Assembly (NCBI GenBank): GCA_964016885.1
Contig: CAXHJY010001139.1
Location: forward strand, 1-62,350
DNA length: 62,350 nucleotides
DNA from: Eledone cirrhosa
Lineage: Eukaryota
Reading direction: 5' to 3'
In this document: piece after piece, positions 2,675-61,590 of the stretch
Numbering within the stretch: position 1 is the first letter of the stretch
How the letters are laid out: the number at the start of each line of letters is the position of its first letter
Made by a program: the position numbers and the translations under genes
Notes under the pieces: generated by a model
Seen by the model: only the letters and a program-made list of their open reading frames with translations
Databases searched by the model: none
What the model was told of the DNA's origin: nothing

Positions 2675-2711
2675 TCTTAACGTTTAGGACCGCTAGTCCT
2701 TCGTCAGAAGA
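2675..2711 (-). ncRNA. Degenerate minimal hammerhead (core G12 lost)
   Basis: Minus strand reads UCUU CUGACGA AGGAC UAGCG GUCCU AAACGUU AAGA. Stems I and II pair, stem III is the palindrome ACGU, but GAAAC lacks its G. Confidence 0.5.
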
Positions 2712-4423
2712 AAGAATGAGAAAGAAGATAGATTGAGGGGATGGGGGTGATGAAATATATATATATATATATAGATATATATATAGATATATATATATGA
2801 TAACATCGTCAGGTTAGTATACTGAGATATCTTAGCTGTGATGTTAGCTAAACACAAACATGTGGTTTGGTTCTATATGCATGGCTTCCGTACACGTGCT
2901 TGTAGTGTTGGTGGTGAGTCTCAGAGGTACAGCCGTTTAGAGTGTGGAATATTTTCACAAAACACTGCATATTTGAAATTTAAGATCGTAAATGCCAATA
3001 AGGATGGTAGATATTATCAAACACACACATATATATATACACATATATAAAAGTGTTTATAAATACATGCACATGCACATACATATTTATATATACATAC
3101 ACACAACATATATATATAAGTGTGTATGTGTGTGTGTGCATATATATGTGTTAATATACAAACATACATATATATATATATATACATATATATATATATA
3201 TATATACATATATATATATATACATATATCATATATATACATATATATATATACATATATATATATACATATATATATATACATATATATATATATATAC
3301 ATATATATACATATACATATATACATATATATATTATATATATATATATATATACATATATATATATATACATATATACATATATATATATATATACATA
3401 TATACATATATATATATATATATAATATATATATATATATATATATATATGATAGCATAATAGCCGAGAGATATACGTGAACTTTTGATGATCCATTCTA
3501 ACGGAAGTGTCATACTGCAGACGGGTCTGTGAAAGAGGAAGGGGAGCATGGAGAGGGTATATATATATGTGTGGTGTGTGTATATATATATATATATGTA
3601 TATATAATATATATATATATATATATATATATATATATATATATATATATATATATATATATATATATATATATATATATATGTCTATATATATAATATA
3701 TATATATATATATATATATATATATATATATATATATGTCTATATATATATATATATATATATGTCTATATATATATATATATATATATATATATATATA
3801 TATATATATATATATATATATATATGTCTATATATATATATATATATATATATAATATATGTCTATATATATATATATATATATATATATATATATATGT
3901 CTATATATATATATATATATAATATATATATAATATATATATGTATATATGTCCCACTATATATATTATGAATATATATGTATATATATATGTCTATATA
4001 TATATGTGTATATATATATATATATATATATGTATATATATATATATATACATATATATATATATATATGTATATATATATATATGTCCCTCTCTCTCTA
4101 TATATATATATATGTATATATATATATATATATATATATATGTATATATATTAACAGTTGAGAGACGATTCTCAATAGACAGCATGTATTTACTTACATA
4201 AATTATCACTGTCAATGTCCGAGTGTCAACATTTCACACAATGTTTTCTATACAGACACACTTAGACACTTACACAGCCACACACACACACACACATATA
4301 TATATATATATATATATATATATATATATATATATATATATATATATATATATATATATATATATATAAGATAGATAGATAGATAGATAGATAGATAGAT
4401 AGATAGATAGATAAATAGATAGA

Positions 4424-4787
4424 TTTCTTTATTAGCCACAAGGGTGCAACAAGAAAAGGGGACAATATAAAGACATGCCGGGGATTTTACATACAGTCGT
4501 GTAAAAAATATAAAAACAAACAATTACAACAATCGAAATCCCCAATAGGGGGGGCGCCACAAATGGGTTGTTTAATACCCCGTCGATAGAACAACCCTCA
4601 ACTCCAGGAGCGTGTGTGCAAGTGCTCCTTTCTTCCTTTTGCTCTCTTCCTCAACCTACAGGCTTATAAACAGAGAAGGCCCAATCACTCGGGCCATTTT
4701 CGCTTCATTCACCCACCTTTCAGTAAATTTACTGGTGTGCAGTGCCTATCTCCACACTCTGATTCTCCTTCTAAAGTGATACTTAAA
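4424..4787 (-). mobile_element. Tx1/L1-like LINE 3' end flanked by (GATA)n
   Basis: Reverse complement matches 20300-20560 and encodes YHFRRRIRVE...FTERW. Confidence 0.7.
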
Positions 4788-5525
4788 TAGATAGATAGAT
4801 AGATAGATATAGATATGCTCACAGACACAGTTATACTCACACAAGTTCTGATAGACACTCACACACATTCAAACATATACACACAGACACATACATATAT
4901 ATACACACACACATACACACACACATACACACACACACACATACATACATACATACATACATACACACATACATACATACATAAATAAATACATACACAG
5001 GTACGTATTTATACATGCATAAGGGTGTCAGACGACGTATGTGTGAGATTGATTCACTATATACCCCAGTAGCAACACCACCACTGGTATATCACCATCG
5101 CCTTATACACCCGATTCCTCACCACCTCAGCCACCATCTCCGCCACCATATTCACGCTAACACCATCCTGAATAACCACCCTCACTAGCACCACCTCAGC
5201 CACCCATCTCCGCCACCATATTCACGCTAACACCATCCTAATAACCACCCTCACTAGCACCACCACCACCACCACCACCACCAATCACCACTACTACCAC
5301 CACCATCACCACCAGACACCACTAGCACCACCACCACCAATACCAAGCACCACTACCACCACCACCACCACCACCAATCACCACTTCCACCACCACCACC
5401 ACCACCACCAGACACCACTTCCACCACCACCACCACCACCACCAGACACCACGGTCACCACCACTACCAATCACCACTTCCACCACCACCACCACCACCA
5501 CCACCAGACACCACTAGCACCACCA

Positions 5526-5754
5526 ATGTCAACTCTGGATGTCGGTGTGGGTCTGAGACTTGGACACTGACCAAGAAACTCACTCAGATGGTGGATGGGT
5601 GCTACACGAGAATGCTGGGGATGGCTCTGAACATTAATCAGTATACACTGAGGATGAAAAAACTCAGAGCTGTATGGGAGCATCCCAAAAGTCAGCTCAA
5701 AAGTGTCACAGAGGAGACTGAGGTTAGCTGGACATGCTCACCGACATCCAGAGT
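5526..5754 (+). mobile_element. RTE-like LINE fragment with an inverted 5' piece
   Basis: [23 protein letters not shown]...[11 protein letters not shown]; same family as 54355-54725. Confidence 0.8.
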
Positions 5755-5876
5755 ATATATATATATATATATATATATATATATATATATATATATATAT
5801 ATATATATATATATATATATATATTTATATACACACACACACATAAACACACATATACATATATATATATATATAT

Positions 5877-6060
5877 AACGAAGGAAATGTGGTAAGGAAA
5901 TATGGTAAGGAACTAGATGGACCATAACGCACCAAAGTACTCAATACTTAGGGTAGTAGAGTGGGTAATAGGAACAAGTAGGACCCCGAGGTCTGAGCTC
6001 AAGCCGTTTCGACGGCTAATACGGCTTGAGCTCAGCCGTCGGGGTCCTACTTGTTCCTAT
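5877..6060 (-). mobile_element. Family A fold-back element (SLC16 intron 2)
   Basis: Same tail and inverted arm; centre partly deleted; (TA)n on both sides. Confidence 0.85.
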
Positions 6061-6629
6061 TTATATATATATATATATATATATATATATATATATATAT
6101 ATATATATATATATATATATATATATATATGCACACACATATGAGAGATGGGGAGAGAGGAAACAGAAAGAAAACAATACTAATGATGATGATGATGATG
6201 ATGATGATGGTCGCATTCCCTTGAAGCATTCGATACGTATGTACTATTAATCGACATACATAAATACATATACACATATATATATATACGTACATACATA
6301 CACACATACACAAACGTACGTCGTTCATACATACATACATAGTACATACACACACACATACATAGATACACACATACAGACAGACAGACAGACACACATA
6401 CATACATATAAACCCAAACACAGACACGTGCATGTCGTAATGACCAGCTGTATTTGACATTTTGTCAAATTACATAGGGTAACAATGGCATGTGAATTGT
6501 CATCTAAATTCCACCACCACCGCCGCCGCCGCTGACGCCACCGCCGCCAGTAACAGCACCACCACCGCCGCCGCCAGTAACAGCACCACCACGCCGCCAC
6601 CATTATCATTCTTTTCATTATTATTATGA

Positions 6630-59629: not shown

Positions 59630-59773
59630 CCGTATTTCCCGGCGCAGAAGACGCTTCATTCTCGAGGACACACCCTAATTTTGACAACCAAAAATTTGAA
59701 AAATAATAAACAACAACGTTTGGCCTCCAGGAAGCATGGTAGATTTTTTTAGACTTATCTTAGGAAAATACGG
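59630..59773. mobile_element. Tc1/mariner-type MITE
   Basis: TA-ccgtatttccc...ggaaaatacgg-TA; internal sequence similar to the 33036 copy. Confidence 0.8.
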
Positions 59774-59859
59774 TATAGATGCATGTATATATATGCACAC
59801 GCACACACATATATATATGCATATATATATATATATATATATATATATATATATATATA

Positions 59860-60058
59860 TAGGAACCAGTAAGACCCCGACAGCTGAGCTCAAGCCGTTT
59901 CGACGGCTAATTCGAATTAGCCGTCGAATTAGCCGTCGAAACGGCTTGAGCTCAGCTGTCGGGGTCTTACTGGTTCCTATTACCCACTCTACTACCTCAA
60001 GTATTGAGTACTTTGGTACGTTATGGTCCACCTGGTTCCTTACCACATTTCCTTCGTT
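59860..60058 (+). mobile_element. Family A fold-back element with duplicated centre
   Basis: Centre ggctaattcgaattagccgtc-gaattagccgtc-gaaac; (TA)n flanks. Confidence 0.85.
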
Positions 60059-60344
60059 ATATATATATATATATATATATATACATATATATGCATCTGT
60101 ATATATATATGCATATATATATGCCTATATGTATGCATATATATATGCCTATATGTATGCATATATATATATGCATATACATACACACATATATATCTAT
60201 GCCTATACGTATGTATATATATATATATATATATATATATATATATATATATATATATATATATATATATATATATGCATATATATAGTTATACACATAT
60301 ACGGAGGCACATACAGTGGCCAATTTTCACTATATATTGAATCC

Positions 60345-60655
60345 GTTGTATCATTTGGAGCCTGATTATTACCCCTTCAAAAGGGCTCTTGAACAGCTCT
60401 CAAGATGTACCCAAGGGTTTCCTCTTCTTATGCACACAGAAGGCAAGCACCATCCCCTAAGTCGATAGGGTCTTCTCTTCACATGTTCGAAATATAGGCA
60501 TCTTCTCCCATGAGGACAGACTCTCCTTTGATACAGATAGGTAGACAGCTTCTACCAGGCAGACAAGGTTCTCCTTCCTCATGTACAAAGGGTAGGTTTG
60601 ACAGCTTCCTCCAAGAAGACAGGATGACTTCTTCAAATTGGTTCAAATATTCTGA
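60345..60655 (-). mobile_element. Possible decayed non-LTR fragment (zinc-knuckle remnant)
   Basis: Translates with stops to ...ACLLCA*EEETLGYIL..., resembling the CxxC...ET..HIL..C motif. Confidence 0.35.
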
Positions 60656-61171
60656 TATATATATACACACACACATATATATATATATATATTTTTTTTT
60701 TTACCGTTGGTCAGTCAAAGGTAAACATTGAGGACCGAATGAATTAACTGTGGAGATATAAACGATACAGAAGCCAAAACCCCCTAAAAAACAAACAACC
60801 AAACAGTGTGTTCTGTTATTATTTCTGGCAATATTATTACAACAATATGACCCTCCCCAAGTATAACAATATATATATATACATAAATTATAATGGGGTA
60901 CACACATACACACCTACCCACAAGCACACACACATGCAAACACAACCATTATTGTACACAGATTTATATCTCTGTACACATGCATACTTGAAAATGTTTA
61001 GCCTTCTGTCACAATAAAATGATATATACTCTCACACACACCCATATGTATATATATATATATATACACACACACACACATACACCTCGCTCTCTTTCCT
61101 TATAGATATATAGAGAGGGACTGTATGTGTATGTATGTATGTATATATATATATATATATATATATATATA

Positions 61172-61590
61172 TACAATATTAAATAAATGGAAACTATATT
61201 TATAAAACCATATTTATTTCATTATATATATTTCGGGGATATCATATTAACAATATGCTATGCCTTCCTCAGACAAAATACAATATAAACAGTTTTATAG
61301 ATAAAATAAACTGCCAGTTTAACCTCTTCAAATGCAAGTCGGTGTTATAACGGTATGTCGAATCTATTTATCTATAAAACTGTTTATATTGTATTTTGTC
61401 TGAGGAAGGCATAGCATATTGTTAATATGATATCCCCGAAATATATATAATGAAATAAATATGGTTTTATAAATATAGTTTCCATTTATTTAATATTGTA
61501 AATATACTCCAAATATTTGTCGAGTGCTTTTATATCAGTTATAAATATTTACTAGTTGTAACCCAACTATTTTAAATATAACTTTCCATA
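61172..61590 (+). mobile_element. Family C HHR element with near-identical ~135-bp inverted arms
   Basis: 61172-61305 is the reverse complement of ~61362-61500; (TA)n on both sides. Confidence 0.85.
61392..61457 (+). ncRNA. Type I hammerhead ribozyme (family C variant); identical inverted twin at 61215-61280 (-)
   Basis: tattttgt CTGAGGA aggcatagcatatt gtt aatatgatatcccc GAA atatatat A atgaaata. Stem II differs in sequence from the 26125 and 50186 copies but still pairs. Confidence 0.8.

Follow-up and report, generated by a model that had tools for sequence, protein, structure and literature searches.

What kind of element leaves short palindromes with hammerhead ribozyme (HHR) motifs between (TA)n tracts, as seen again and again in one contig of Eledone cirrhosa? 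The contig (CAXHJY010001139.1 of assembly GCA_964016885.1; C1166 among the 1,796 contigs of this 2,996-Mb genome) was analysed over its entire 62,350 nucleotides, hereafter the window. A preliminary description had proposed several families of non-autonomous or severely truncated Penelope-like elements (PLEs) targeted to (TA)n. Our analysis indicates that the window is very probably littered with the 3′ ends of several PLE families, chiefly of the Hydra clade, together with family G, a tandem retrozyme that lacks an open reading frame (ORF) and shares the same insertion anatomy. Families A, C, D, E and F are genuine repeats, mostly asymmetric palindromes, as had been described; "truncated" fits A, C and F, whereas "non-autonomous" fits only G.

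Hammerhead motifs and the parents of the families

A type I descriptor (a minimum of 4 for stem I, 3 for stem II and 2 further pairs for stem III, around a CUGAnGA or UUGAnAA core) revealed nine HHR motifs in the window, whereas 20 local dinucleotide shuffles averaged 0.05 (maximum 1), a density that bears out the motifs noted earlier. The matches, given by the position of C3, lie at 14958 and 26133 on the plus strand and at 57675, 50241, 46048, 25900, 16678, 16369 and 15517 on the minus strand, and they include all four intervals singled out beforehand for cleavage assays (46004–46054, 57608–57685, 15468–15522 and 50186–50249).

Forty evenly spaced 10-kb segments (400 kb, all from contigs C1–C6 and C8) contained 24 descriptor motifs, against 0, 0, 2, 0 and 1 in five shuffles. 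After removal of two isolated U3-A8 matches without relatives (L116, L151; L numbers denote retrieved loci), 22 motifs remained in 10 of the 40 segments, equivalent to 55 per Mb (bootstrap 22.5–95). Extrapolated from this sample, the genome-wide load would be about 165,000 motifs (95% range 67,000–285,000), in line with the very large load that had been predicted; insertions are fewer than motifs, since many motifs form inverted pairs, and the motif count is too low because minimal families such as F fall below the descriptor. A slightly looser scan over all retrieved, partly redundant loci gave 266 motifs in 28 clusters, of which 11 were singletons, and included three U3-A8 clusters besides family A.

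Family A provides the clearest parent. Its upstream region is present in at least 40 genomic copies at about 100% identity, extending into a 1.3-kb 3′ untranslated region (UTR) and an ORF, and one locus (L152) holds a naturally intact unit of 3,538 bp that comprises a pseudo-long terminal repeat (pLTR), a 717-codon ORF, the UTR, the hammerhead and the tail, followed by 118 bp of TA. Tandem arrays of family A show a unit spacing of about 3.53 kb, and two loci with at least four head-to-tail units each (G000:C1:437200366-437211149 and C1:91476427-91487244) are candidate source loci.

The protein encoded in L152 carries RWR and DKT (RWK and DKT in the homolog consensus), the reverse transcriptase (RT) motifs of the Hydra clade, together with a complete CxCx5C linker and CxxC and CxH around E/N without CCHH, which is the Hydra-type endonuclease (EN) end; all Hydra-clade motifs listed by Craig et al. 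(PMC8557442) are present. RT residues distinctive of the published Hydra-1_Obim were also recognised by eye. Among 8,000 scored candidates, 2,216 were relatives of this protein. A structure model built from 116 sequences (predicted local distance difference test, pLDDT, 93) placed TERT structures at Foldseek ranks 1 and 2 (E about 1e-8), indicating that the single ORF is a telomerase-like RT; the single-sequence model was unusable (pLDDT 33). A putative GIY-YIG signature, VIY...YIG with R, H, E and N, was read by eye and is conserved in the homolog alignment.

Long family A copies carry a UUGAGAA core, in which U3-A8 replaces C3-G8, with a 5-bp stem I, an extended stem II, a 6-bp stem III and a GUC site, and the minimum-energy fold is a three-way junction, though with z = 0.41. 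Family A had been described as the one family without a hammerhead; the copies in the window begin inside loop II and have lost the 5′ half of the motif, which is why no core was seen there. A contig of run X5 (organism B), from a second study, agrees with L152 over 183 bp that include the U3-A8 core, all letters being identical but for one gap. Long ends with TA flanks also occur in that low-share run, which spans the element in fragments only. The sequencing runs listed as matching included no RNA run, which says nothing about expression.

For families A, C and F alike, RT or GIY-YIG coding sequence lies upstream of the same 3′ end, which upholds the Penelope-like reading. In family C, which has a canonical hammerhead core, a Hydra-type EN end lies about 1.5–1.9 kb upstream (L072, L088) and L070 holds an RT piece with linker, all read by eye; on these motifs it is, like A, assigned to the Hydra clade. 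Internal microsatellites in the family C 3′ UTR (L065, L072, L075, L078, L088) have served as targets for other PLE ends, giving nested insertions. Family F directly follows the end of a CX4CxxC-GIY-YIG ORF in L126 and L143, with a C-terminal piece in L099, and looks Nematis-like by eye from the spacing after the linker. Families D, E and H share the insertion anatomy and tail hairpin of the Hydra families; H, described earlier as a single element, has at least 40 genomic matches at 97–100%, several of them head-to-head pairs. Within the window, as had been stated, none of the 51 ORFs of 150 or more amino acids encodes a PLE protein, and most are translations of simple repeats.

Several observations weigh against this assignment. 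A scan with Rfam models, of the kind recommended at the outset, gave no match at all at the gathering score, and no hammerhead model appeared among the 150 of 709 E-value matches listed; the sub-threshold matches were miRNA (microRNA)-like only, on simple repeats and palindromes, and were discarded as candidates. Of the ten motifs that were folded, only three had a z of about −2 or below relative to shuffles; the motifs are predicted ribozymes. Pfam returned no family for the family A protein, so that its GIY-YIG call rests on motifs; a PDB sequence search was also empty, and none of the Foldseek matches listed was a GIY-YIG structure. Among the retrieved loci, no contiguous ORF parent was found for D, E or H and no ORF link for the family at 16678; in L207 a piece of a Hydra ORF lies next to H and may simply be its neighbour. 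A search for longer D copies came back empty, a result that carries no weight either way.

Insertion ends and (TA)n tracts

Family A positions are counted over the last 500 nt of the unit, where the core lies at 320, the 3′ strand of stem II at 373, the cleavage site after 403 and the long end at 500. In 39 young copies, chosen by tail identity alone (the best 40 matches minus the window's own), the direct arm begins at 359–370 in 26, at 376–397 in six, inside the tail in three and at 339 and 352 in two, while the arms of the remaining two extend past the retrieved stretch. Family A thus shows a sharp, family-specific stop in loop II, and its two arms mostly end 10–20 nt 5′ of the 3′ strand of stem II. 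No direct arm among the 39 begins at 401–406, the surroundings of the cleavage site at 403/404, and ribozyme cleavage was rejected as the determinant of 5′ ends. A splice acceptor at 364 is likewise an unlikely edge, because many ends reach 359–363. Many family C 5′ ends cluster about 80–90 nt upstream of the core, which suggests a stop specific to that family too, in loci that were chosen by similarity and are biased to that extent.

An inverted arm is present in 30 of the 39 young copies; it starts at 423, next to TA, in 28 of the 30 and ends at 360–369 in 23. Family A accordingly ends 3′ at either of two fixed points, one about 20 nt and the other about 97 nt beyond the cleavage site; each adjoins (TA)n, and the short-end arm is the inverted one. 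The junctions between arms differ in every young copy, several showing microhomology or short local duplications. One SINE-like (short interspersed element-like) copy lies where a truncated A copy has its 5′ junction (L111), and another stands between the arms of a C insertion (L006).

The association with (TA)n, claimed from the window, holds. (TA)4+ comes after the long 3′ end in 16 of 17 cases for A and 13 of 14 for C, compared with 4 of 60 SINE control ends and a background of 1.4%. The corresponding counts are 7/15 for F, 7/16 for D and 2/3 for G, those for F and D being diluted because their references ended at the short end and copies continue into the tail. (TA)n makes up 12.9% of the window versus 4.6% of the genome sample, and 91 of 436 tracts of 10 or more TA units are bordered on one or both sides by a recurrent repeat end, for the most part from these families, a few coming from SINEs or long interspersed elements (LINEs). 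As the target is itself a TA repeat, target duplications are unreadable within it.

These end products could arise in a few steps. The PLE protein would bind the tail hairpin and nick both strands of a (TA)n tract; two complementary DNAs (cDNAs) would be primed, one from each RNA start site and one per strand; end joining, with microhomology and short templated inserts, would fuse them head to head; and most events would end at the family-specific stop, yielding palindromes of about 200 bp. We infer twin target-primed cDNAs. The two fixed ends parallel Poseidon PAc, for which Frangieh et al. 2024 (PMC11167929) describe two RT start sites together with cleavage and activity on both strands. The ribozyme would not set the insertion ends. 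Its likelier role is to cut tandem read-through RNA into units, perhaps circularised, and this would account for the way ORF-start copies continue into the upstream UTR. Read-through or circular templates were proposed by Cervera and de la Peña 2014 (PMC4209133).

This scheme has its own difficulties. One family A copy outside the 39-copy set (L148) begins at 403. None of the 14 ORF-start copies (14 of 40 matches retrieved) begins at the stop site (359–373): 12 continue past it and two begin inside the tail, L160 and L161 being two arms of one insertion. The stop is therefore not simply the start of the messenger RNA, and a full-length mRNA start at that site was rejected. Moreover, the two-cDNA model is drawn from end products, and self-priming would yield similar palindromes. 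As to the cause of the stop, the edge at 359 falls immediately 3′ of the loop that caps extended stem II and also on an initiator-like TCATTT; the two features coincide, and either may set the stop.

An unlikely but serious alternative concerns the template and leaves the family assignment untouched: the mini-palindromes would be self-propagating and non-autonomous, short RNAs from an internal promoter near 359 being copied in trans. The sharp edge at 359–360 on the presumed initiator would suit such a promoter, and read-derived contigs cover the tail and the 3′ half of the HHR far more deeply than the ORF (a depth that is not a copy number). Promoter motifs in pLTRs have been described for Penelope (PMC3846280). 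The absence of ORF-start copies beginning at 359–373 speaks against it, and since all junctions differ, no single mini-palindrome can have been the copied master. A little less likely still is that the inverted arm comes from fold-back self-priming of one cDNA at the extended stem II hairpin, as proposed earlier for Penelope palindromes (PMC3846280), rather than from a second target-primed cDNA. The position of the edge just beyond the apical loop in the minimum-energy fold agrees with this; yet the inverted arm ends at its own fixed, TA-abutting site in 28 of 30 copies, as expected of a second primed start, few copies enter the 5′ strand of the hairpin (the ends at 352 and 339 only), and the many family C ends upstream of the core fall outside the ribozyme, albeit in biased loci.

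Two further explanations carry far less weight. Tc1/mariner transposons prefer TA, and short ORF-less palindromes with TA flanks resemble their miniature inverted-repeat transposable elements (MITEs); that the families are such MITEs, or other DNA transposons with terminal inverted repeats, with incidental ribozyme motifs, is very improbable. The arms are asymmetric, with a tail on one side only, the junctions vary from copy to copy, and long copies of A, C and F lead into RT or GIY-YIG ORFs, so that for these three families DNA-transposon parents, the outcome that would have overturned the preliminary description, are already contradicted. Least probable of all is an assembly artefact. The window is a whole unplaced 62-kb contig with 13% (TA)n, which might invite one, whereas the same structures stand on large chromosomes, and read-derived contigs show opposite-strand joints at the same place as the genomic A palindromes, one of them from a second study (the best sources may be the assembly's own sample).

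The tail hairpin and family G

Between the two 3′ ends, just after the short one, 14 of 23 families carry a hairpin with a 4-bp helix, RCTY...RAGY, followed by RCY, compared with 0.17 families expected from shuffles. A, C, D, E, H and G served to define the pattern, which was broadened to take in G, and two further families had first been noticed by eye; of the 13 families that remain, four have it. The nine families without it include F, three further tandem families and one that lies downstream of a Hydra ORF, which shows that the hairpin is not universal. Covariation lends it weak support, at one pair (A-U in six, G-C in two, probably a single event, with G misaligned) and with 10 of 500 shuffles scoring as high.

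The exact motif was found by eye in three of the six new consensi of Craig et al. from other phyla (Hydra-2_Amil, Hydra-1_Ajap and Hydra-2_Ajap), and Hydra-1_Crog has it with a single mismatch. The motif is missing from Hydra-1_Amil and Hydra-1_Obim, whose consensi appear, by eye, to end before the tail. The hairpin may be a signal that tells the copying enzyme where to start.

Family G is an ORF-less tandem family, present in at least 40 copies at 97–99%. L125 and L094 each hold two of its HHR units in a row, of 452 and 472 bp respectively, lengths that slightly exceed the published retrozyme range of 170–400 nt. Its insertions have inverted arms, short and long 3′ ends and TA flanks (L106, L110 and window 29913–30079), and its tail bears an ACTT/AAGT variant of the hairpin. 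Among the top matches no long arrays were seen, only monomers and partial dimers. These features make G a candidate for mobilisation by Hydra proteins, with structural support that stops short of proof. Upstream of the ribozyme the unit (L125:380-400, L094, L110) contains the octamer ATGCAAAT, which presumably recalls small nuclear RNA-type promoters. Three more ORF-less tandem HHR families were met, with units of 317 bp (L100), 310 bp (L104) and about 400 bp (L013/L105); L100 and L104 have inverted arms, the L100 core is U3-A8, and all three are without the exact tail hairpin.

Tentatively, and with slightly more doubt than belief, we suggest that the hairpin, RCTC-N11-19-GAGY-RCY, is a clade-wide cis signal that recruits the Hydra PLE protein and places the two priming sites, conserved from coral and sea cucumber to this genome; that G captured a variant of it for mobilisation in trans; and that twin-primed, fixed-stop insertion explains an HHR count of the order of 100,000 or more and ties at least a fifth of the sampled long (TA)n tracts to element ends.

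Copies in the window and relation to known elements

The family A mini-palindrome at 59862–60057 (plus strand) consists of an inverted short arm and a direct arm with the 3′ half of the HHR and the tail, is 99–100% identical to the intact parent, and shows the tail hairpin ACTC-N16-GAGT-ACT at 59986–60015 (plus) between its short and long 3′ ends. Others lie at 29387–29577 (plus; 97–98% to the parent) and, on the minus strand, at 29714–29897, 5894–6057, 21717–21909 and 48849–49034, and an older subfamily is represented by a mini-palindrome at 23504–23699 (plus; 81–82% to the parent) and an unstranded fragment at 30488–30568. Further fragments occur at 47355–47429 (unstranded) and, with an internal deletion, at 57897–57983 (minus).

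All families other than A had been credited with hammerhead cores. For C and D this held at 25800, 50141 and 45988. The family C copy at 25801–26322 (plus) has an inverted tail-less arm (25801–25956) and a direct arm with the HHR at 26125–26189 and a tail to 26322, and that at 50142–50396 (minus) a short-end arm with the HHR at 50186–50249 fused to a direct tail piece; the copy at 61174–61587 (plus), of a second subfamily, is a palindrome with tail whose degenerate HHR failed the strict descriptor, and 7882–7968 (minus) is a tail without ribozyme. In family D, 45886–46113 (minus) comprises a palindrome at 45999–46106 with an intact HHR (core at 46048) and an extra partial copy at 45886–45934, whereas the cores are damaged at 27238–27320 (unstranded), 38905–39000 (plus; degenerate) and 49635–49765 (plus; a direct arm with tail hairpin). 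Family E is present at 16275–16535 (plus; palindrome 16275–16483, HHR at 16369 on the minus strand, tail with a GCTC/GAGC hairpin variant) and 57506–57694 (minus; HHR 57608–57685, tail with hairpin), family H at 15320–15586 (minus; HHR 15468–15522 and tail), and the Nematis-like family F at 54728–55546 (plus), with inverted pieces and a direct arm bearing a minimal HHR at 55355.

The cases described as weaker fared unevenly. That at 14952 is a truncated monomer of the family G tandem (14930–15258, plus; core 14958), and a G 3′ end forms a head-to-head palindrome with long and short ends at 29913–30079 (minus). The one at 2675 is a dead copy that lost G12 (2590–2754, minus) in a family with intact relatives; those at 12640 (12620–12760, plus) and 30379 (30375–30453, plus) are degenerate relics, the former with degenerate relatives that have a tail hairpin and the latter with one degenerate relative found. 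The positions 56687, 27529, 22493 and 56728 had no relatives among the retrieved loci, and the last three show core-like words with partial stems. A further HHR family had been overlooked at 16569–16690 (minus; core at 16678; relatives in L121 and L110), and a 197-bp palindrome at 45259–45455 (unstranded) has a relative in the 3′ end of another PLE, which in L093 lies next to a GIY-YIG ORF.

Other repeats share the window. The 3′ ends of a LINE with an RTE-like C-terminus, also bordered by TA, lie at 54359–54725, 23745–24041 and 5575–5753; their CUGAGGA words are not hammerheads. Nor are the CUGAAGA words in a tandem repeat with periods of 14, 43 and 85 bp at 36298–36815. Two abundant SINE-like families, which supplied the controls for TA flanks, are represented by 45058–45245, with about 12 other copies, and by 50448–50662. 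Imperfect palindromes stand at 30629–30755 (no relative found) and 19799–19911 (relatives in three loci), and near-identical pairs (97–99%, 230–280 bp) outside any family at 1897–2172/27689–27963, 4422–4674/20299–20553 and 44235–44465/48535–48765.

Much of the system was already on record. Hydra-clade PLEs that carry canonical HHRs and tails, insert at (TA)n and can have inverted 5′ copies were reported by Craig et al. 2021 (PMC8557442), among them Hydra-1_Obim of Octopus bimaculoides. Family A shares with them a single ORF, RWK-like and DKT motifs, CxCx5C, a C-terminal EN without CCHH, a type I HHR close to the 3′ end, insertion at (TA)n and an optional inverted 5′ copy with tail; the architecture met here, with partial tandems forming pLTRs, an inverted 5′ copy and an optional tail, is of PLE type. 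Unlike the published elements, which are generally under 3 kb, have tails of 30–40 bp and in all Hydra rows of File S2 show CUGAnGA, family A measures 3.5 kb with a 1.3-kb UTR and has a 77-nt tail, a 6-bp stem III and a U3-A8 core. The available text of Craig et al. yielded no description of the fixed stop and tail hairpin of this genome.

Poseidon PAc of Anolis (PMC11167929) likewise has two internal RT start sites that define a tail, both-strand cleavage and extension, and AT-rich targets, and its HHR is unnecessary for insertion in vitro. It belongs to another clade, targets ATT and not (TA)n, and has an AC-rich stem-loop inside the ORF, whereas the ends in this genome bracket a non-coding hairpin upstream of the start codon. 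The minimal PLE hammerheads of PMC4209133 resemble ours in lying in pLTRs, mostly as single truncated motifs, in opposite-strand pairs 100–700 bp apart, with many families per genome and U3-A8 covariation (Schistosoma Cercyon); the load there is 2,000–9,000 per genome, against about 165,000 here. Unlike them, A and D have stems III of 4–6 bp and may work as monomers.

Family G agrees with non-LTR retrozymes (Cervera and de la Peña 2020, PMC7229834; Li et al. 2026, 10.64898/2026.07.22.740005) in its ORF-less tandem unit, type I HHR, short palindromic stem III and a host with autonomous PLEs, and differs from them in unit length and in its PLE-type inverted arms, two 3′ ends, TA flanks and hairpin variant; these features would be structural, not phylogenetic, evidence for mobilisation by PLEs. 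The family F parent shares with Nematis- and Neptune-clade PLEs a CX4CxxC linker before a CCHH-type GIY-YIG, and its short spacing after the linker is, by eye, like that of Nematis and unlike the Neptune rows of Fig. S2 in Craig et al. In the literature searched, mostly without subscription papers and Repbase reports, we found no account of the tail hairpin or of the fixed stop with its head-to-head arms, no hammerhead census of a cephalopod and no 450–470-bp tandem retrozyme with this anatomy of insertion, and "ribozyme" occurs 0 times in the available text of an Octopus vulgaris repeat paper (PMC13282606).

Collectively, the core system is mostly explained by a published clade, to which this genome adds the load, the fixed-stop palindromes, the hairpin and a retrozyme partner. 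TA-flanked palindromes of this kind risk being misfiled as MITEs or miRNA hairpins, and Rfam misses them. If the hairpin reading is true, an HHR count of the order of 100,000 or more would stand at or above the largest figure compared, the 126,247 HHRs published for axolotl. The origin of the inverted and tandem structures of PLEs and the machinery that moves animal retrozymes are open questions in the field, for which this genome offers a Hydra element that is young and intact and has two exact start sites on its RNA, along with a hairpin that may serve in recognition, a sharp stop and a possible non-autonomous partner.

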